Source of the DNA: a virus
Lineage: Duplodnaviria; Heunggongvirae; Uroviricota; Caudoviricetes
Direction: 5' to 3' (one strand)
Length of the DNA: 64,000 bases
Virus record (IMG/VR): IMGVR_UViG_3300043438_000976
Location: 36,027 to 100,026 of that record
Shown: positions 1,849 through 58,283 of the stretch, one piece after another
Numbering within the stretch: position 1 is the first letter of the stretch
Layout: every line of letters starts with the position of its first letter
Notes under the pieces: model-generated
What the model was told of the DNA's origin: nothing
What the model saw: the letters and a program-made list of their open reading frames with translations, nothing else
Database searches by the model: none
Translations under genes and position numbers: made by a program

Positions 1849-4382
1849 TTAACTAAACACTCCACAATGCCTGAACCGTTTTCTAATGCAAATGCAAATG
1901 GTTGTCGGCCATTGCTAGTTGTACTGCCTTTGCCATCCATGTACGGCCAAATAGGTTCGCCTTTTAACACGTACCCTTCTACTTTAACTGGTACACGACC
2001 AGTTAACGCAATATATGTTCCGCCTTCTAATTCACTATTCATCATATATGCAGGCTTACCGGAGACTACACCGATAACATAACAGTCACTAGTTGTTACC
2101 GCGGTAACTTCTGCAATGCCACCAACTGTCATCACAGTACCGACTGAGTATTCTCGGTCTGTTAGATATTTTTCTGCCAAGTCAGCATACACTGCAACAG
2201 TAGCAGTTCCTCTAAAGAACGATCCTCTAATATCACCTAGGTCATCTCTTGCAACAATAGTAGCAGTAATATTATCTTCATATCCTTTAGCATAGTATGT
2301 AAATCCGCCTGCATAAGGCACAATTTCTAAAGCTGCGGCCTGTGCATTACTCGAACCAGTAGCACCAGTTAATCCAGTGGCACCAGTTGATCCTTGAGCA
2401 CCAGTTGCACCCGATGATCCTTGAGCACCTGTGGCACCTGTGGCACCATCATATCCAGCAGGCCCAGTAGACCCCCACAAACCAGTTGATCCTGTACTTC
2501 CTGGAAGTCCGATATCTCCTTGTGGACCAGTTGCTCCCATTGATCCAGTTGCACCAGTTGCTCCGGTCGCACCTGTTGATCCTATTCCAGTAGCACCAGT
2601 AGCACCCATTACACCTTCTGCTCCAGTTGCACCTGTAGCCCCACTAGGACCAGTAGCACCGGTTATTGGACCAACACTTATTACGGAAGCATCGCTTAAT
2701 GTAAATTCAATTATTGTATTGCTAGAAGTTAATGTAGCAGTGGTAATATATTTGCCTTGAGGACCAGTTGCACCAGTAGCACCAGATGCTCCTTCACTGC
2801 CTTGTAAACCGACTGCTCCGGTAGCCCCAGCCGGCCCTGTCGCACCTGTCGCACCTGTAGTTCCCGGTATACTTGGACCTTCTGAACCAGTAGCACCTGC
2901 AGGACCAGTAGCACCGGTTGCACCGGTTGCACCTGTAGTTCCTAACGGGCCAGTTGCACCTGTGCTGCCTTGTAATCCAGTAGCACCTGTTGCACCTGTT
3001 GCTCCAATGGCACCTGTTGCACCTGTAGCACCTTGTCCTGTAGCACCTGTAGCACCCGGCTCTCCTTGGTTACCAGTAGCACCTGTGGCACCAGTTGAAC
3101 CAATGCCTGTAGCACCAGTTGAGCCTAACTCGCCTTGAATACCAGTTGCACCGGTAGCACCGTCACCGCCAATTGGTCCAGTTGAACCAGTAGCACCGTC
3201 TGGACCGGTAGCACCGTCTGCTCCGGTTGCACCTGTAGCACCTAATCCAGTTGATCCTTGCGGACCAGTTGCACCTGTAGCACCTCGGAGTCCGGTAGCA
3301 CCAGTAGCACCAAAGTTACCTGTAGCACCTGTTGATCCTAACGGACCAGTTGCACCTGTTGTACCTAAGTCGCCAGTCGGTCCTTGAATGCCAGTAGCAC
3401 CAGTTGCACCAAAATTGCCAGTAGCCCCAGTTCCGCCAACTGGTCCAGTAGCACCCGGACTGCCTATACCAGTTGCACCTGTAGTTCCTTGTCCAGTAGC
3501 ACCAGTTGCACCTGCACCGCCAAATGGTGCACCTGCACTCCAGTTACCATCTCCGTTTTGTTTAATGTATAATGTTCCGGTACCTAGTTCTAAAAATGCA
3601 AAACCAAACGGACGATCATCATATTGACTTCGTTCGTCGTACGGAGTTGGCCAATACCCTACAGCATCAATAACAAATGGCTGACCAATTTCCCCTGTTG
3701 CACCTGTAGCACCTTCGCCTGTAGCACCAGTTGAACCAATTGGTCCAGTTGAACCCGTACCGCCTTGACCTGCAAATGTTCCAGCAATACCAGTAGCACC
3801 TTGGGGTCCTGTAGAACCTGTTGATCCTTGAGCACCAGTTGCACCTGTACCGCCTTGGCCGGGAATACCTTGTTGACCAGTGGAACCAGTACCGCCTTGG
3901 AATGCTGCTATTCCGGGAATACCCTGGAGACCGGTTGCACCTTGTTCACCGGTTGCACCTTGGGCACCTGTAGAACCAGTAGCACCGCTACCAGTAGCAC
4001 CTGCACTACCTGTAGCACCTGCACTACCAGCAGGCCCTTGACTTCCGGTTGCACCAGTTGCACCCATAAATGCAGCAGTACCTGGGATACCTTGCGGACC
4101 AGTAGCACCAGTTCCTCCGGGATAGCCAATATCACCTTTTGGACCAGTAGATCCAGTTGAACCACCTTGCCCCGTAGCACCAGTTGATCCGCTGCCTGTG
4201 GCACCTCGTAGACCAATCGGTCCAGTGGCTCCGCTAGCACCTACCGCAGTTTCTCTACTAAAAAATGTTCCTAATGTTTCTACAGTTACATAGTATGTTT
4301 GTCTGGTAGAAGTATCCGCTACTGGTATCAGAACAGCATTGGTTAGTGTGTTTAACGGTGGTAAATTACTTATTGTGCTCAT
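1845..4382 (-). CDS. Collagen-like fibre protein with C-terminal intramolecular chaperone/autocleavage (Peptidase_G2-like) domain
   Basis: 845 aa with extensive GATGATG repeats. The C-terminal YADLAEKY...GTV...IGVVS...[10 protein letters not shown] is shared with the 2161-aa protein, and the N-terminus MSTISNLP is shared with the neighbouring collagen gene. Confidence 0.85.
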
Positions 4383-51403: not shown

Positions 51404-52035
51404 TAATTATAGATAATGTAATCTTTGTACTTTTCAATACTTCTAGACATAAGTTCTAAATGTTTATCAGTATCTAATCTTCCTGCAATGAACATGGTAA
51501 TTTTTCTATATTCTGCAGGTGCTATGAAAGATCCATGATAGCCTACATGGTTGTTTAATACAAACCAATCAGTGTCATTGGGTAGTACAGGAAACACAGG
51601 TGATAATAAGTTTCTAGGTCTTTGATCGTATTGTACAATATCGGGATTAGATGACGTTGGCAGCACATAGAATGTTTCTAACATGTCACGCATTACTAAA
51701 TTTTTATAAGCAGTGGGTCCTAATTCTCCATCAGCTAACGATTTAGCTATTGGATCTTGGTGCGGCTTATTATTGACTATCTGCTCTCTAAAATCAAAAT
51801 GTCCATTATTTTCATAATCTAACAGCGGCAATGCTCTTAATTTTTCATCAAGGTCGGGAAACAACTTTAGCAGATCCGGGTCTATTGGCTTGTTCATTGG
51901 TTTAAAATTTACCCAAGCCCAGTCTTGATGAGGTAGCTTTCTTGCGTCAAAGTATTCCAAAACTTTCTGTCTATCTAAATTTAACTTAGGCAAATCAATA
52001 GGCATTAGTATAATATCTTTTAAATTCATCTCCAT
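51403..52035 (-). CDS. Cupin/Fe(II)-2OG oxygenase-like protein
   Basis: KPHQD...FVLNN..GYHG...RK. Confidence 0.55.
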   Translation of the reverse strand: MEMNLKDIILMPIDLPKLNLDRQKVLEYFDARKLPHQDWAWVNFKPMNKPIDPDLLKLFPDLDEKLRALPLLDYENNGHFDFREQIVNNKPHQDPIAKSLADGELGPTAYKNLVMRDMLETFYVLPTSSNPDIVQYDQRPRNLLSPVFPVLPNDTDWFVLNNHVGYHGSFIAPAEYRKITMFIAGRLDTDKHLELMSRSIEKYKDYIIYN

Positions 52036-53453
52036 CCTCGATTTATTATTGTTTTTAATTTTTCTTTATATGTAGAAATAAAAGGATCTTTCCTTGCCAT
52101 TACTAACATAGCCCAATCTTTCCAACCGTATTGTTTAATTTCTTCCTTAGTATACCCTAATGAATAAAGCGAAGAAGTATAAAATCCAGTCATAGGCCAA
52201 GTCGGTTGCAAGATATCATTAAACTCGTGTGATAGTGCTTCGTGCAGTTCGTGATTATTTTTGGGGTCTCTAGTATCTTCCCACCCCATGACTTCTGCAT
52301 CTCCAGATTGATCGTCAGAATTTTTCCAATATGCTTTCTTTTTTAGAAAAAACTTTTCGGGATTATTTGCAAACTCAGATTTTGGCAATATGACAAGTCC
52401 TCGAAAATATCCTCTTATAAAATTATTCTCTTTAATCCAATCTACTGTTGATCTAAGATGGGGTATATCTTCTCCAGGTAGTCCTGAAATAAAACTTGCT
52501 TCGATACCTACTTGATTTTTCCAGAGATCATTGTGTAATTTAGGTAAGTAATCTTTTCCGTGTTTAGCATTCCATCCCTTTCCTACCTTTCGAGCAGCTT
52601 CTGGATGAAAACTCTCCATGCCAAAGTATACCTGGTCTACTCCGCTTTCCAACATTAGATTGTGATTTTCATGGCTCCATATCAAATCTGCACGTACAAA
52701 GCCAGACCATCTAATTTTATAATCAAGTTGTTTGTTTATATTAGCAATCTCAGCTATCTTATCTTGATCTTCGTTGCAGGTATCGTCTAAGAAAACATAG
52801 TTAGTAGTTCCAAATACATCTCTGTTTCGTAGCATTTCATTTAATAAGTATTCAGGTTTCCTAATATATGACCCTTTAGATTTACCTAGATTTGGATACG
52901 TACAGAAACTGCACTTAAAAATACACCCTCGACCTAATTCTATAGGAACTGCTTCATCGGGCATAATACAATCATCTTCGTGAAATGTATGATCGTTTTG
53001 AGTTATATCAAAAACAGAATTTGGCAATGCTACTCCCATACTCTGTTCTTGACACCATTTTAGAAATTGGTCTTCACCTTCCCCGACAAATGCACGATCT
53101 AACATCTTGTAATTGTTAGAGTACGGCCCACCTCCTACAATTGGAAGATTTGGAAATTTCTTTTTAAAATACTGTATTGCTATCATAATAGCCCCGGGCG
53201 GATAAGAACTATCTGCGTTCCAAAATACTGTAGTGAGTGCAATACAAACAGTGTCTTTAGTTATTAAAGGCTCTGTAAATTCAATAATTTCTTTAGCAGT
53301 AAAATGTTGTAAGAAATCTATAACCTGACATTGAAATCGATTCTTCCGCATCCAATGAGCTAACGCATATGCGGCCATTGGACGCTGCATAGTTGGCAGT
53401 TTTTCGTAAGTAAAATTCGGCCAGACACCGCTCCAAAATATTATATTTCTCAT
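52026..53453 (-). CDS. Cobalamin-binding radical SAM enzyme
   Basis: AAYALA...QVIDF...VGGGP; ELGRGCIFKCSFC; DDTCNE; FGMES. Confidence 0.88.
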   Translation of the reverse strand: MRNIIFWSGVWPNFTYEKLPTMQRPMAAYALAHWMRKNRFQCQVIDFLQHFTAKEIIEFTEPLITKDTVCIALTTVFWNADSSYPPGAIMIAIQYFKKKFPNLPIVGGGPYSNNYKMLDRAFVGEGEDQFLKWCQEQSMGVALPNSVFDITQNDHTFHEDDCIMPDEAVPIELGRGCIFKCSFCTYPNLGKSKGSYIRKPEYLLNEMLRNRDVFGTTNYVFLDDTCNEDQDKIAEIANINKQLDYKIRWSGFVRADLIWSHENHNLMLESGVDQVYFGMESFHPEAARKVGKGWNAKHGKDYLPKLHNDLWKNQVGIEASFISGLPGEDIPHLRSTVDWIKENNFIRGYFRGLVILPKSEFANNPEKFFLKKKAYWKNSDDQSGDAEVMGWEDTRDPKNNHELHEALSHEFNDILQPTWPMTGFYTSSLYSLGYTKEEIKQYGWKDWAMLVMARKDPFISTYKEKLKTIINRGWR

Positions 53454-53504: not shown

Positions 53505-54428
53505 TTAATCTGGTCGCTGAAAGTATTTCAAAGATACTTTAGAACTTTTTAATTCTTTAATAAATTCAAAGTAAGGAATAAGCACAGCAGTCTTTCTATA
53601 CAAATTTCCAACAGTTAGTTTTAATTCAGGATTAGATGGTTCGTTTTTCATAAAAGGAACATTTTCCCATCCGCCAAACTTTGGGAAGTATAATAATTCG
53701 TCTTTCCAATACTTTCCATAAATTATTGGTTTAATATAATAGTCCCATCTATCTACACTATCTAAGTGAAAGTTTTCCTTGCACAGCCCATTTCCGTCAA
53801 AATATCTATGAGTATGCATTGCCGATTGATAAACATCATCATTTAAAATACTATAAAGAAATTCTGATGGATCTCCGTAAGGTATATACTTTCCTTTTCT
53901 TTTTAATAACTCCATTGATCGCATTCTCGCTACCTCGGGACTGTGATATCCTTGATAAAAATAAAACTTATTGTCCGGAGTAATATGTACAAATGGATCA
54001 TGAATCATTTGAATGACATCGGCGTCGTCAGGTAAAAGTCTAGTAAAAATACTCTGCATTACTTGCACAGGATGGATACATTGATCCTGTGCAATTTTCA
54101 TTACTTGTTCCTCGTACTGTATCGGATCTAAATCAATAATATCGATGCGTACACCGTACTTCTTCTTAACTAATTGCAATTGTTCGTATTCTATATCATT
54201 ATACCCCGGCATATAATAAAATACACAGTCGAGCGGAATGCCTTGAGTAAAGAAACTGTGTAATACACTCTGACTATCAACACCCGAACTCATTCCTAAA
54301 ATCAACTTGTGATGATTTTCTGCAAGTTTTCGAGCCCTTCTATCTGACTCTTCTCGCATGTTTCCTGGCACCCTAGTTAATGCTGGGAATTCTACATAAA
54401 ATTGATTGTTTTCGAAGCCGTAGTTCAT
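53505..54428 (-). CDS. PP-loop family protein (paralog of 47075)
   Basis: ILGMSSGVDSQ motif. Confidence 0.65.
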   Translation of the reverse strand: MNYGFENNQFYVEFPALTRVPGNMREESDRRARKLAENHHKLILGMSSGVDSQSVLHSFFTQGIPLDCVFYYMPGYNDIEYEQLQLVKKKYGVRIDIIDLDPIQYEEQVMKIAQDQCIHPVQVMQSIFTRLLPDDADVIQMIHDPFVHITPDNKFYFYQGYHSPEVARMRSMELLKRKGKYIPYGDPSEFLYSILNDDVYQSAMHTHRYFDGNGLCKENFHLDSVDRWDYYIKPIIYGKYWKDELLYFPKFGGWENVPFMKNEPSNPELKLTVGNLYRKTAVLIPYFEFIKELKSSKVSLKYFQRPD

Positions 54429-54443
54429 GATGATATTTAAGTC

Positions 54444-54470
54444 AAAAAAATACCCGCCGAAGCGGGTATT
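54444..54470 (-). terminator. Rho-independent terminator after the vWA/TROVE-like gene
   Basis: AATACCCGC-TTCG-GCGGGTA followed by a T7 tract on the minus strand. Confidence 0.9.
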
Positions 54471-54485
54471 GGATCTACAATCCTA

Positions 54486-55901
54486 TTACAGATCGTAGCG
54501 TGGAACCATGATGGTTTTCATCATAATGCCTTCTGGAGTGAATTGTTCAGTGTCCGCACTCAAGACCGCTTTCACGATGCTTGGGCTAAAACCACTAACC
54601 AATGCCGCTCCACGTGTGTCATATTTGACAGGCACGTTGTCGCTAGCGTTCAAATTCCAGAATACAATGTTTGGAACATCGTATCCGGCGTCTGTGAACT
54701 TACGCTTGATCATCTGCATAGCAGAGTCATCGTACTTTGCACAGGCGTCAAACTGCATGTCGCTCAAGATCAACAGCATCTTTGGCATGTCTTCTTGTGG
54801 AACAGCACCATTAACAGCTACACTAAGGATCTTGTCCATAGCCTTAACCAAGTTAGTGTTCATATCCCACTTAGACTTAACCATTTGTTCAGCCTTTTGA
54901 ACCACATTACCCTTCAGAGTCAACAGTTCTGGTGAACCGCTAAATGTTAGGAATGTGTCCTTGAACACACCTTTGTTCTTATCAGCAAGGTACAAGCCCA
55001 AGCTGACAGCAACATCCATACAAGAGAAAGAACTTCCCTTACCTGCTGGTGTGCTCATAGAGCCGCTAACGTCTACCAATGGTAGGATGCTAGCATCACC
55101 GACAAAGTTAGGCAGTGCTTCCCACTGTGCTACAATGTGGTCCAGTTCTGTCTTGTTGAACTTGACACCACCGTAGTGGTTGATCACGCCCTTCAAGACA
55201 TCGTATGGGTAAACAGCTCCGGCGTTAACCTTGACACCTGCTTCACCCTTAGCCAATTTAGCCACGTATTCCGCAAACTTTTCAGTATGACGGCCGAAGG
55301 CCTTCTTGTAACGTGCTGCCGCAACGGATGGCACGTGGTTGAAGTTGATGTTATCCCAGTCGTTGGCACACATTTGTGTTTCAACAACTGTAGTCATTGC
55401 TACCAATGACTTACGGTATTGCTTAGGAGTCATACCAAAGAAATCACGGATTTCTGCGGCGACTTTACCCTTACGAGGAGTCCACTTTGCAGCCAAGCCA
55501 TTGCGAGCACGAAGTGCATCGCCTAGCAGTGTGAAAGCCTTAGCCTTCAATGCTTTGGACTCAAATACAAACAAGTCGTCCCAACGACCAAGTTCTGGGA
55601 TCTTGTCCATCAGCACTTCTGCGGCTGCTGGATCGTGCTTTTCCAGATACTTTAAGATGCTACGGAACAGTTCACGTTCACCGGAACCTCCACGAACGTC
55701 TCGTGCCCATTGTGCAACACGCAGGGCTAGATCTTTGTCTTCCACATACGCGGCAACAAAGTCCTTAGTGATGTCCTTACCACGGCTTGCACCGATCTTG
55801 AAGAACAGATCAACTACTGCGTTGGCAGTAGATTTGCGAGCCTTCATGCCATTGGCAGTACGGGCTTCTTGGTTTTTAACGGCTTCTACAAATGCGTTCA
55901 T
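54486..55901 (-). CDS. TROVE/Ro60-like helical repeat plus vWA protein (DUF2828-type)
   Basis: ARDVRGGSGERELF, PELGRWDD, AAKWTPR, MIDAS DVSGSM...TFS...LSDMQFD, IVFWNL, SGFSP; AAGGA SD before the ATG at 55901. Confidence 0.85.
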   Translation of the reverse strand: MNAFVEAVKNQEARTANGMKARKSTANAVVDLFFKIGASRGKDITKDFVAAYVEDKDLALRVAQWARDVRGGSGERELFRSILKYLEKHDPAAAEVLMDKIPELGRWDDLFVFESKALKAKAFTLLGDALRARNGLAAKWTPRKGKVAAEIRDFFGMTPKQYRKSLVAMTTVVETQMCANDWDNINFNHVPSVAAARYKKAFGRHTEKFAEYVAKLAKGEAGVKVNAGAVYPYDVLKGVINHYGGVKFNKTELDHIVAQWEALPNFVGDASILPLVDVSGSMSTPAGKGSSFSCMDVAVSLGLYLADKNKGVFKDTFLTFSGSPELLTLKGNVVQKAEQMVKSKWDMNTNLVKAMDKILSVAVNGAVPQEDMPKMLLILSDMQFDACAKYDDSAMQMIKRKFTDAGYDVPNIVFWNLNASDNVPVKYDTRGAALVSGFSPSIVKAVLSADTEQFTPEGIMMKTIMVPRYDL

Positions 55902-55913
55902 TTTCTTTTCCTT

Positions 55914-55983
55914 CAGGTTAAATGTGGGCTTTGTTGTTCCCACGGGTTTTAATGATACAATTTAAAATTGCTGTAATTAACCT
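55914..55983 (-). ncRNA. CAGCAA leader element, unit 3 (70 nt)
   Basis: AGGTTAA-TTA-CAGCAA ... internal hairpin GTGGG/CCCAC ... TTAACCTG, immediately before the SD. Confidence 0.65.
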
Positions 55984-55991
55984 AACTACAA

Positions 55992-56246
55992 CAGGATGGC
56001 TGAGACGGATTTTTATTTTCTGCTTACCCCCATCCCCAGTATATCGGTTCAAGTCTCGCAAGCCTAGCATACAATTCATGTCGCCTAGATTGTGTTGTGT
56101 CTGTACAATCATCATACAAAGTCTTTCCAATGTGTCGTCTATTCCTTCGAGTCTAGTTTCCTAGAACAGTATTTCTACTGTGTCCTGCGACCATCTTCTA
56201 TAGCAGTTAGTTCAGAGTTTATTGTTTAAGTTGCTGAATCCATCCT
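55992..56246 (-). ncRNA. CAGCAA leader element, unit 2 (255 nt)
   Basis: AGGATGG-ATT-CAGCAA ... AAAATAAAA ... CCATCCTG; internal GAAA-capped hairpins (CAGTA-GAAA-TACTG, CTAG-GAAA-CTAG). Confidence 0.7.
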
Positions 56247-56255
56247 AGGATTTAA

Positions 56256-56420
56256 CAGGTTAGTTGTTGACTGCTTTTATTTTACACAGGCCATCACTCT
56301 GTGCTCGTTAGTCTTGCTTCAATAGACCCCTTCAACGCTCGGTGTTTTTACGCACTCTGCTCCAGTTTCTACCACAGTGTCTAACAGTTCATAGTTAATG
56401 AATGTTGCTGTACCTAACCT
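56256..56420 (-). ncRNA. CAGCAA leader element, unit 1 (165 nt)
   Basis: AGGTTAG-GTA-CAGCAA ... AAAATAAAA ... CTAACCTG. Confidence 0.7.
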
Positions 56421-56458
56421 AAAACTTCTTAGCTTGCATTACTGCTTGCTATGTATTA

Positions 56459-56487
56459 ATTATATACTAATTAACTCTTGTTGTCAA
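56459..56487 (-). promoter_or_regulatory. Sigma70-type promoter driving the RNA array and vWA gene
   Basis: Perfect TTGACA-17-TATAAT. Confidence 0.9.
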
Positions 56488-56518: not shown

Positions 56519-56608
56519 TGGCAGTGGGTAAGAGATTCGAACTCTTGTGCCGCTTTCGCAACCTGCACCTTTCCAAGATGTGCCAATAAACCGCTCTGGC
56601 AACCCACT
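56519..56608 (-). tRNA. tRNA-Ser(GGA)
   Basis: AGTGGGT/ACCCACT acceptor, long variable arm, TT-GGA-AA loop, G73, CCA. Confidence 0.9.
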
Positions 56609-56955: not shown

Positions 56956-57465
56956 TTATAAAAACTTTTCTAATATTTTCTCTAATTCTAAATGATCCGA
57001 TCTTATACTGATAATATTTTTAAATTGATCTGTAGAATTTACTACAGTATGCCAATAATTGTACGCATCAAAAATACAACTGCCATTTTTCATACTCCAT
57101 TGGTCAACTAATTTTGCGTTATTTTCATCTAATAAAGGTATAGAACTTTTATGAAAATTTTGATGAAAGGTATTAGTTGTATCATTTATCTGGTCAAAAA
57201 TTTCTATCGAAACATCCTCATGACCTATTGGTGCTACTACTAATGACCAACGAACTCCCGTACCGTCTAGCCGTTGATCTTTATGTATTATGTCTTTCGA
57301 GTTTGGACTCAACCAAATAGAAAGGGTATATACATCATCGACTAAATCTTCCAATCCTAACATTTTTAAATAAGGCGAGGAATCTACAACACCCCAAAAA
57401 TTTCCAACATTTGGATTTAGATGATATGAAAATACGTTTTTTGTAGTTATTGGAATAAAATACAT
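56956..57465 (-). CDS. Cupin/Fe(II)-2OG oxygenase-like protein wedged between tRNAs
   Basis: IIHKD...FDAYNYWHTVVN; the ATG at 57465 avoids overlap with the tRNA. Confidence 0.6.
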   Translation of the reverse strand: MYFIPITTKNVFSYHLNPNVGNFWGVVDSSPYLKMLGLEDLVDDVYTLSIWLSPNSKDIIHKDQRLDGTGVRWSLVVAPIGHEDVSIEIFDQINDTTNTFHQNFHKSSIPLLDENNAKLVDQWSMKNGSCIFDAYNYWHTVVNSTDQFKNIISIRSDHLELEKILEKFL

Positions 57466-57469
57466 ATAT

Positions 57470-57544
57470 TGGCCGGCCATGCAGGAATCGAACCCACACC
57501 GCTTGTTTCGAAGACAAGCATGATATCCATTTCACTAATGGCCG
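57470..57544 (-). tRNA. tRNA-Arg(UCG)
   Basis: CGGCCAT/ATGGCCG acceptor, CTTGT-CT-TCG-AA-ACAAG, CCA. Confidence 0.9.
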
Positions 57545-57649: not shown

Positions 57650-57678
57650 ATTATACAACATTATGGAAATTCAGTCAA
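57650..57678 (-). promoter_or_regulatory. Sigma70-type promoter for the tRNA cluster
   Basis: TTGACT-17-TATAAT; the -35 lies inside the start of the divergent QueC-like gene. Confidence 0.75.
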
Positions 57679-58283
57679 GGATAGATGGTAAACAGATCGT
57701 TGTGAATTTACAACAGAATACAGCTTACGGGTTAATGATGTCCGGAGGACTAGACAGTGCAGTATTGCTCTATCTAATGCTTAAAGATTGTCCTACTGCT
57801 AGCATCCAACCTTTTTATATTGCCAAACACGACGGCTCGTATGCGTACATTGACGGTATCATTGAGTACATAAATCTACTGTTTAATATTCGACTACCTG
57901 ACCCTATCAAAGTAGGGTCACCGGATATTCATCATACCCAGATTAATCAAACAGGCATTAGACATGTTCTAATAAAGTATCCAGAAATAGAAAAATTGTT
58001 TATAGGCATCAATCAAAATCCGCCACAACCTTGGGGAGATCCAAAATGGCAGTTTCCTAACAGGCCTATATCTAATAGTAATCCTAGAATAGAGATGCCT
58101 TTTATGATGCTGTACAAGACACACATAGTTGATCTTGTTGATCAACTTGAAATTCAGGCACTCGCAAATCTAACGCATACCTGTACTGAACAAGTAACAG
58201 GTAGATGTTTAAAATGTTTTCAATGTAGCGAAAGAATGTGGGCATATCAAACACTCGGTCTAACAGATCACGGTAAACTCTAA
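57663..58283 (+). CDS. QueC-like PP-loop ATPase
   Basis: MSGGLDS; C-terminal THTC...CLKCFQCSER zinc cluster. Confidence 0.75.
   Translation: MEIQSRIDGKQIVVNLQQNTAYGLMMSGGLDSAVLLYLMLKDCPTASIQPFYIAKHDGSYAYIDGIIEYINLLFNIRLPDPIKVGSPDIHHTQINQTGIRHVLIKYPEIEKLFIGINQNPPQPWGDPKWQFPNRPISNSNPRIEMPFMMLYKTHIVDLVDQLEIQALANLTHTCTEQVTGRCLKCFQCSERMWAYQTLGLTDHGKL

Follow-up and report, generated by a model that had tools for sequence, protein, structure and literature searches.

A 64,000-nucleotide (nt) stretch of the IMG/VR virus record IMGVR_UViG_3300043438_000976 (positions 36,027-100,026; hereafter the window) carries a phage gene of the DUF2828/DUF7788 family, and the leader of this gene contains three tandem structured RNA units that are real and conserved. 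We consider it likely that the units are RNAs made of a common handle and a variable cargo, which would derive from one leader transcript and be held by the Ro60-like protein encoded just downstream. The locus probably belongs to a widespread, uncatalogued cousin of the Ro60/Y-RNA particle. A first-pass annotation, made from the sequence alone, had put forward two readings: that the array is a source of ligand RNAs for the protein in a phage ribonucleoprotein system, or that it is a multi-site autoregulatory leader. The former is supported by covariation of the stems, linkage to the gene, the Ro60 fold of the protein model, YrlA-like sibling units and the metatranscriptome depth of unit 2, and it is from these that we infer binding of the RNAs by the protein.

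The features of the locus, all of which lie on the minus strand, are as follows.

56459-56487, minus strand: sigma-70-type promoter; -35 box TTGACA (56487-56482), 17-nt spacer, -10 box TATAAT (56464-56459)
56422-56452, minus strand: 5′ leader of about 30 nt, from the transcription start (inferred from the position of the -10 box) to unit 1
56256-56421, minus strand: unit 1 including the flanking U.G pair 56421/56256, a handle with about 140 nt of cargo; core 56420-56257 (164 nt), closing stem AGGTTAG/CTAACCT, 5′ strand 56420-56414, CAGCAA 56410-56405, 3′ strand 56263-56257
55992-56247, minus strand: unit 2 including flanks, a handle with about 230 nt of cargo, G at 55992; core 56246-55993 (254 nt), closing stem AGGATGG/CCATCCT, 5′ strand 56246-56240, CAGCAA 56236-56231, 3′ strand 55999-55993
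55914-55984, minus strand: unit 3 including flanks, a minimal handle RNA with an inner GC hairpin, G at 55914; core 55983-55915 (69 nt), closing stem AGGTTAA/TTAACCT, 5′ strand 55983-55977, CAGCAA 55973-55968, 3′ strand 55921-55915
55909-55913, minus strand: Shine-Dalgarno (SD) sequence AAGGA, 1 nt past the closing G of unit 3 and 8 nt ahead of the ATG
54486-55901, minus strand: DUF2828/DUF7788 gene (471 amino acids, aa; predicted Ro60-like ring plus vWA domain), ATG at 55901, end of the open reading frame (ORF) at 54486
54449-54470, minus strand: intrinsic terminator, a 9-bp stem with 5 G-C pairs followed by a T-run
56519-56608, minus strand: tRNA-Ser(GGA), called by ARAGORN, the final gene of a tRNA cluster that lies upstream on the same strand; 31 nt separate its end from the -35 box

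Relative to the DUF2828 gene, whose strand they share, the units are located 13-520 nt upstream; they are separated by linkers of 10 and 9 nt (9 and 8 nt when the closing G is counted with the unit). Both a reading of the sequence and a pairing scan place CAGCAA exactly 3 nt past the 5′ strand and a G directly after the 3′ strand in all three, and in each a U ahead of the 5′ strand is able to pair with that G. The window has 43 occurrences of CAGCAA, and a perfect 7-bp Watson-Crick partner with a G after it exists only for those in the three units. In these respects the first-pass annotation was accurate: the distinct complementary stems that it described are exact in the pairing scan, the sequence contains all five ordered motifs that it noted in both unit 1 and unit 2, its perfect sigma-70 promoter (56487-56459) matches the consensus at 12 of 12 positions, the terminator that it placed after the gene is found at 54470-54449, and unit 3 is a minimal form abutting the SD, which begins 1 nt after the unit’s G.

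To place the array among its relatives, a protein-guided scan of IMG/VR was used, which yielded 80 loci with proteins 72-97% identical; the 66 loci with at least 620 nt of upstream DNA served for unit counts. Units are present in the leaders of all 66, with one to three in each, and a strict scan gave three units in 39 loci, two in 22 and one in 5. The strict scan overlooks variants, and an apparent loss of unit 3 in the two closest relatives was rejected when alignment revealed a shortened unit 3 with CAGCAU. A promoter with a 17-nt spacer and at most two mismatches lies 19-39 nt 5′ of the first unit in 54 of 65 relatives. At the other end of the array, the last unit stops 14-18 nt before the ATG in 55 of the 66, with the SD 1-4 nt past its closing G. 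The leader had been described as free of credible ORFs, and the longest leader ORFs of the relatives do match expectation from shuffled leaders (median of 50 aa versus 55 aa), with neither strand nor place being kept.

The closing stems vary in sequence and keep their pairing, as the first-pass annotation had anticipated for other genomes. There are 25 different covarying closing-stem pairs among the relatives, and an alignment of 59 distinct minimal units has double changes in five of eight stem pairs; the G4-C75 pair, next to the stem end, is invariant in 59/59, and the other pairs covary. Because these 59 units had been chosen for possessing a stem, an unselected control was made, in which distinct CAGCAA sites of the relatives were asked for a perfect 7-bp partner followed by G. 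Such a partner was found for 139 of 154 sites in leaders (90%), for 3 of 48 inside the gene (6%) and for 1 of 153 on the opposite strand (0.7%). The conserved U.G pair can form on this strand only. Unit 3 has a fold z-score of -3.1, and the minimum-energy fold of isolated unit 1 retains the closing stem. A pairing between the 5′ strand of unit 1 and the 3′ strand of unit 3, which appears in the minimum-energy fold of the whole leader, was set aside as an artefact of two similar stems, because the stems of most relatives could not form it.

The handle common to the units consists of a 7-9-bp terminal helix beginning with U.G, A-U and G-C, after which come, on the 5′ side, 3 nt and the single-stranded CAGCAA; on the 3′ side, an A-rich tract precedes the 3′ strand, and CUG(UU) forms the tail. 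The tract, AAAAUAAAA, is kept in units 1 and 2 and likewise in the minimal units. What the handle encloses is much less constant, ranging from a multi-helix RNA of about 140 nt in unit 1 or 230 nt in unit 2 to almost nothing in unit 3. The large cargoes are themselves conserved as structures. Orthologs of unit 1 (alignment A2) have compensatory changes in the closing stem and in inner helices, including GUUAG/CUAAC and CACAG/CUGUG, and among the 16 orthologs of unit 2 (alignment A3) such changes affect 29 of 57 consensus pairs, including those of a long-range helix adjoining the handle. A tRNA-like cargo was considered for units 1 and 2 and rejected, as a regular-expression search found no T-loop or D-arm in either. 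The units of the window have no match to YrlA at E ≤ 10, and units 1 and 2 have no Rfam match. A sibling unit with the same handle (L063, 2618-2725), by comparison, matches the full YrlA model with 37.7 bits (E = 3.6e-6) through the T-arm, hairpin and D-arm, leaving the YrlA closing helices unmatched, and the same permuted-tRNA module, T-arm and D-arm, is present in sibling units of three other loci (L042, L017 and L014). Because the cargoes of units 1 and 2 are structured and conserved, and siblings carry a permuted tRNA in the same handle, the family is best described as one fixed handle combined with exchangeable cargoes.

Units 1 and 2 also have a sub-module in common, visible in alignments A2 and A3, which consists of CUGGAG, a variable hairpin and UUGAAGG. 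It is found in unit 2 of some relatives and only in unit 1 of others, and may be a common tertiary or protein-binding element of the cargo.

The encoded protein is assigned by Pfam to PF25043 (DUF7788; E = 2.7e-50, 171.1 bits against a cut-off of 27.1) and PF11443 (DUF2828; E = 7.3e-27, 94.7 bits against a cut-off of 29). These are its only matches at E ≤ 0.001, the TROVE profile PF05731 not being among them, and a phmmer search of PDB sequences returned nothing at E ≤ 10. An AlphaFold2 model built with 65 diverse sequences (predicted local distance difference test score, pLDDT, 91.2; predicted template modelling score, pTM, 0.89) predicts that the protein is a Ro60-shaped ring of helical repeats closed by a vWA domain. 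When the model was compared with the PDB by Foldseek, the 12 best matches were all Ro60 proteins (from phage phiLo, Xenopus with RNA, Deinococcus as Rsr, and human), matched over the full length with E-values of 6e-9 to 2.6e-6 and template modelling (TM) scores of 0.46-0.65. A comparison with Swiss-Prot models agrees on Ro60; there both sides are predictions, whereas the PDB targets are solved structures. The metal ion-dependent adhesion site of the vWA domain is intact, with D277-x-S279-x-S281, T349 and D381 invariant in the 65 sequences and DVSGS as the reading in the window. The earlier description of a TROVE/vWA-like gene therefore stands for the vWA domain and for the modelled Ro60 fold, and does not stand for Pfam TROVE membership. 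The DUF2828/DUF7788 family is very large, comprising 6,304 clusters at 50% identity (E ≤ 0.001), and includes 711 phage records.

If the units are partners of this protein, handles would be expected beside DUF2828 genes in other phages, a linkage that the first-pass annotation had also proposed to look for. A covariance model, R1, was built from the 59 minimal units of this clade alone, and distant phages were searched with filters off. In the window R1 matches unit 3 (42.5 bits, E = 1e-6), by construction, as unit 3 is one of its training sequences. Elsewhere in this genome the model matches strongly at four sites, all on the same strand and within the tRNA array 9-15 kb upstream, and relatives have solitary copies 1-3 kb away. 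Beyond the clade, same-strand copies stand beside DUF2828 genes in seven further lineages at E < 0.01:

Synechococcus phage BUCT-ZZ01: upstream of the gene, 40.2 bits
Listeria phage WIL-1: three upstream, 37.2, 36.7 and 20 bits
Mycobacterium phage LeBron: two downstream, about 25 bits each
Escherichia coli phage HY02: three downstream, among tRNAs, best 24.3 bits
Campylobacter phage F360: two upstream, 27.1 and 20.3 bits
Staphylococcus phage S-CoN_Ph4: three in tandem downstream, best 24.1 bits
Bacillus phage FADO: upstream, 23.1 bits

In four complete phage genomes (450 kb in total), R1 gave 12 matches, all 12 on the strand of the gene and 9 within 600 nt of it. Adjacency of a unit to the SD recurs in BUCT-ZZ01 and F360. 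The phage Bxz1, whose Ro60 is of the true TROVE type, gave no R1 match at E ≤ 10 in 156 kb and serves as a single negative control. When the locus was compared with cultured phages by blastn, nothing beyond the tRNA-Ser and portions of the ORF gave a match, and a search for related loci from a distant representative (P0252) gave nothing.

Two of the phages carry details worth recording. In WIL-1 (L089), the three handle RNAs at 3663-3929 are annotated in RefSeq as tiny hypothetical proteins, gp032-gp034, and genes encoding a ligase of the RtcB type and HD and NADAR proteins follow within 4 kb, which gives the neighbourhood an RNA-repair flavour. In Sinorhizobium phage phiM12 (L094, 546-628), a handle-like unit with AAGCGGC/GCCGCUU, a 4-nt gap and CAGCAA directly follows a tRNA-Lys; it lies 1.9 kb upstream of the DUF2828 gene, with a macro-domain (Appr-1-p processing) gene between.

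The frequent company of tRNA genes raises the question of whether the units are simply punctuation of tRNA operons, that is, processing or protective hairpins that come near the gene only by way of tRNA arrays. The gene does lie in or beside large tRNA arrays in this clade and in HY02, with handle copies interleaved with the tRNAs, and in the window the tRNA-Ser is 31 nt upstream of the promoter. However, the LeBron copies have no tRNA within 4 kb, and it follows that the handles are linked to the gene rather than to tRNAs; the three copies in the Staphylococcus phage come right after the gene, with its sole tRNA 2 kb away. Bxz1, for which about 30 tRNAs are reported in its cluster (PMC9583779), gave no R1 match, and an invariant single-stranded motif together with up to 230 nt of cargo exceeds what punctuation needs. 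We regard this explanation as highly improbable.

Independent information comes from metatranscriptomes. Parts of the stretch occur in 24 runs, of which four (X1-X4) were mapped onto the locus as contigs. In X1, a 251-nt contig with a mean depth of 296x covers 55990-56237 with 0 mismatches; in X2, a 323-nt contig with a mean depth of 151x covers 55990-56292, again with 0 mismatches, and continues into a unit 3 of the type found in relatives. The unit 2 contigs of both runs stop at ...CCUGUU (unit 2 being 55993-56246). In the same lake runs, pieces of the ORF have depths of 4-8x and the strain’s own unit 1 variant 4.7x, which suggests that unit 2 accumulates as a stable RNA at 40-70 times the level of the mRNA. 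Cover in X3 and X4 is low and even. Libraries of this kind would lose a 70-nt RNA, and neither the uncovered parts of the stretch nor the low depth of units 1 and 3 was used as evidence. As for circular forms, the contigs contain no back-joints, only low-depth skips resembling strain variants, and contigs cannot exclude circles.

Strain variants in the lake metatranscriptomes have an identical unit 2 with a different unit 3 (the AGAATGT type of X2, on the 55990 side) or a different unit 1, and X3 has skips at 55913-55990 and 56330-56398. Units seem to be exchanged or remodelled as cassettes between near-identical phages.

The depth of unit 2 bears on the second reading of the first-pass annotation, the autoregulatory leader. 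In its strongest form, the array would be purely cis-acting, a multi-site operator or stability element on its own mRNA with no trans-acting RNA, and this would agree with the location of the units between promoter and SD and with the closeness of the last unit to the ATG (14-18 nt in 55/66 relatives, with the same adjacency in BUCT-ZZ01 and F360). Such a leader would have no use for solitary copies 9-15 kb away in the tRNA array, or 1-3 kb away in relatives, nor for those that follow the gene in LeBron, HY02 and the Staphylococcus phage; the big conserved cargoes of units 1 and 2 would be superfluous for an operator, and unit 2 contigs have 40-70 times the depth of the mRNA. We consider a purely cis-acting array very unlikely. 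A more restricted role in regulation is conceivable. Unit 3 ends 1 nt before the SD, and binding there could therefore throttle translation of the protein’s own mRNA. This feedback would be secondary and lineage-specific, and we put it forward tentatively; it is plausible where the upstream position of the handle is kept, as in 55/66 relatives and two other lineages. It is not the general role of the family, because some phages carry handles downstream of the gene. The autoregulatory proposal is thereby narrowed, having failed as a general role on account of copies that are downstream or kilobases away and being possible for unit 3 alone.

In the reading that we prefer, of handle-plus-cargo RNAs held by the Ro60-like protein, several steps can be envisaged. 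The promoter would give rise to one transcript of about 2 kb, comprising units 1-3, the SD, the DUF2828 ORF and the terminator, and each unit would fold independently into the common handle. The Ro60-shaped DUF2828 protein would bind the handle, much as Ro60 binds the terminal stem of a Y RNA, and the units would be cut apart within the 9-10-nt linkers and may persist as protein-protected small RNAs, a step suggested for unit 2 only. The cargo would then set what the particle touches, the permuted tRNA of some sibling units being a possible case, as in YrlA. The field of action would likely be RNA surveillance or counter-defence during infection.

A number of observations weigh against this reading. 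Vibrio phage XZ1 has no handle within 2.5 kb of its gene, whether by model or by pattern, and phiM12 and Lak-B9 offer weak candidates only. The handle motif is CAGCAA 3 nt past the 5′ strand, and the units lack GNCGAAN0-1G (CGAA), the motif near the 5′ end by which known Y RNAs bind Ro60. In the metatranscriptomes, the depth of a contig is a mean, and contigs give neither strand, true ends nor level; the evidence from depth comes from X1 and X2, two runs of one study; a sequence common to many strains could collect extra depth; and units 1 and 3 do not have an excess like that of unit 2. There is also the case of the Ro60-like protein gp130 of phage Bas63, which is encoded directly before the phage tRNA array and acts against the Ppl defence (10.1101/2024.10.10.617714). 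A plasmid that expressed gp130 and nothing else of the phage rescued T7 on Ppl cells (10.1101/2024.10.10.617714), and the protein can consequently act without phage-encoded RNAs, at least in the T7/Ppl assay.

The gp130 result (10.1101/2024.10.10.617714) would also fit the idea that the units are stable structured RNAs whose partner is not the DUF2828 protein and is instead a host factor (for instance PNPase, RNase E, Hfq or ProQ) or another phage enzyme (for instance an RtcB ligase or a tRNA-modifying enzyme), with adjacency to the gene reflecting common expression or a common pathway. PNPase binds Yrl RNAs directly in the phiLo system (PMC12135203), and the WIL-1 locus contains RtcB-type ligase, HD and NADAR genes as well. 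The DUF2828 gene, however, is the sole constant neighbour of the handles across ten very different phage lineages; LeBron lacks both a tRNA within 4 kb and, in the region shown, an annotated RNA-repair enzyme gene; no handle was found in the phage whose Ro60 is of the TROVE type; and the predicted fold of the protein is that of a family defined by binding exactly such RNA. A different partner is thus unlikely in our view, and the Ro60-like protein remains the preferred one.

The surroundings of the array can be described briefly. The tRNA-Ser(GGA) has a long variable arm, and is called by ARAGORN and not by the Rfam tRNA model at the gathering score. There is no terminator between it and the -35 box, and read-through from the tRNA cluster into the leader is possible. 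Just past the terminator of the DUF2828 gene is a 307-aa ORF (53505-54428, minus strand) with no Pfam match and an N-terminal SGVDS motif of the PP-loop ATPase type, after which comes a B12/radical-SAM gene (52026-53453). A 206-aa ORF (57663-58283, plus strand) matches only the C-terminal 60 residues of QueC, and a 174-aa ORF (56956-57480, minus strand), without a Pfam match, lies between two tRNA genes.

Rfam 15 contains no family that describes the units, and the novelty expected by the first-pass annotation is upheld: none matches them at threshold, a search of the window at gathering thresholds gave tRNAs only, and the whole-window E-value mode added nothing at the locus. The best sub-threshold match of unit 3 is nonetheless of interest. 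It is to RF01414, the Class I RNAs of Dictyostelium, over the full length with 22.0 bits against a gathering threshold of 41.5. For five minimal units of relatives RF01414 is again the best match, with 22.8-32.5 bits, the top one reaching E = 0.001 in a 2-kb search. All six matches are full length and on the right strand, and RF01414 has no match anywhere else.

Class I RNAs are about 60 nt long with low GC content and a CUGU end, have a covarying 6-bp terminal stem with a conserved G-C pair and an 11-nt motif ending in ACAGCAA beside the 5′ strand, and have been reported as unique to Dictyostelia (PMC7919456). The resemblance to the phage handles extends to a covarying end helix of 6-8 bp, in which a 5′ G and its paired 3′ C are conserved, to (U)UACAGCAA(U) directly after the 5′ strand, to an A/U-rich variable middle with an A-run before the 3′ strand, and to a CUGU 3′ end at a length of about 55-65 nt. 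In the motif, and in length and 3′ end, the resemblance is partial. The Class I 11-nt motif is CCUUACAGCAA, for which unit 3 has UUACAGCAA, identical at 9 of 11 positions, and units 1 and 2 have CAGCAA only; the core common across phages is (A)CAGCAA(U). Class I RNAs span 42-65 nt and end in CUGU, whereas unit 3 spans 69-71 nt and ends in CCUGAA; minimal units of relatives are 50-63 nt, mostly ending in CUGUU, and units 1 and 2 are far longer. Class I RNAs are produced from dictyostelid nuclear genes with a DUSE (Dictyostelium upstream sequence element) promoter about 60 nt upstream, in contrast to the sigma-70 promoter and polycistronic layout of the phage locus, and their known direct partner is the RNA recognition motif (RRM) protein Rnp1A. 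No dictyostelid DUF2828 protein is present among the Swiss-Prot matches listed, the Atlas clusters are viral only, and a literature search on Dictyostelium and TROVE gave nothing useful. Filing the units under RF01414 was rejected, since all scores are below 41.5 bits and the kinds of gene and promoter differ. There is a slim chance that phage handles and Class I RNAs form one RNA class, marked by the covarying stem, (U)UACAGCAA and CUGU and read by a Ro60-shaped protein of the DUF2828 type, in which case Class I RNAs would be the amoeba equivalents of Y RNAs. Were the likeness more than convergence, it would open a 20-year-old Dictyostelium puzzle, with the phage locus as the first handle on the biochemical function of Class I RNAs.

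The closest parallels are found among the Y RNAs (YrlA/YrlB and Yrn1/2; RF02553) and their Ro60 proteins, a classic and still poorly understood particle of RNA surveillance. Ro60 orthologs with adjacent same-strand Y RNAs are known from 254 bacteria and 22 phages, the RNAs bearing a GNCGAAN0-1G motif and a tRNA-like module, and in Mycobacterium smegmatis a single precursor, encoded upstream of rsr, is processed into YrlA and YrlB (PMC4201824). As in those loci, a gene of the Ro60 fold (predicted in our case) is flanked by several same-strand small RNAs, each RNA is closed by a helix of its 5′ and 3′ ends and is modular, with a protein-binding stem (putative in our case) and an effector module, and some phage sibling units hold the same permuted tRNA, T-arm followed by D-arm. 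The differences are equally clear. The phage-locus protein is DUF2828/DUF7788 rather than TROVE; the only CGAA in the units, CTCGAAGG in unit 2, is without the required G and is not kept in orthologs; the units of the window have neither a tRNA-like module nor a YrlA match; their cargo reaches 230 nt, compared with total lengths of 80-130 nt for known Y RNAs; and the last unit abuts the SD. At the RF02553 gathering threshold of 69 bits there is no match in the window, and the relatives’ best score is 37.7 bits.

Among phage systems, the Ro60 of Thermus phage phiLo (PDB 9KOP, 9L5Y) is the nearest. Two Yrl RNAs that are defined by CGAA and lie upstream of its gene have been shown to be bound by it, and host PNPase to be affected in that system (PMC12135203). 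Like the present locus, it places its two Y-like RNAs directly upstream of the gene, and by E-value its crystal structure is the best Foldseek match of our protein model (6e-9). The phiLo protein belongs to the TROVE family and is 15% identical to the protein of the window, its RNAs present CGAA in an internal bulge, and neither a CAGCAA handle nor diversity of cargo has been described for it. For Bas63 gp130, the authors guessed that some annotated tRNAs of the phage are Y RNAs, and no RNA partner was identified (10.1101/2024.10.10.617714). HY02, which like Bas63 is a Felixounavirus, has its DUF2828 gene at the same position, with three handles among 22 tRNAs; from genus and gene position, gp130 may be an ortholog of our protein. 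More distant fold matches of the model include proteins of eukaryotic TROVE-module ribonucleoproteins, namely TEP1, found with vault and telomerase RNA, and Tetrahymena p80 (ranks 6 and 24 in the Swiss-Prot part of the AlphaFold Database). These also use a ring-plus-vWA module to hold small structured RNAs, but are very large, have many domains, and hold unrelated RNAs that are not encoded next to them.

Annotators overlook the RNAs or call them tiny ORFs, and an Rfam family would correct the annotation of hundreds of phage genomes. Small and driven from one promoter, the system is directly testable, as related versions exist in phages that are simple to culture (Felix O1 types, Listeria P100 types and LeBron). 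With a relative of the protein having an anti-Ppl phenotype, the RNAs may supply what is so far missing from a mechanism of anti-defence or RNA protection.

To the family of handle RNAs, the locus adds a promoter-driven tandem leader array, large cargo that is not tRNA-like and coupling of the last unit to the SD, together with the negative control of a TROVE phage and a metatranscriptome signal for unit 2; the searchable literature holds no paper that links DUF2828 or DUF7788 to an RNA and none that describes these units. The system follows the same logic as Ro60 and its Y RNAs, with another protein family and another RNA element. We suggest that this logic is extended here to a very large family of proteins, to a different recognition element and to an open-ended cargo, which may be nothing at all, a tRNA mimic or a domain of 230 nt.

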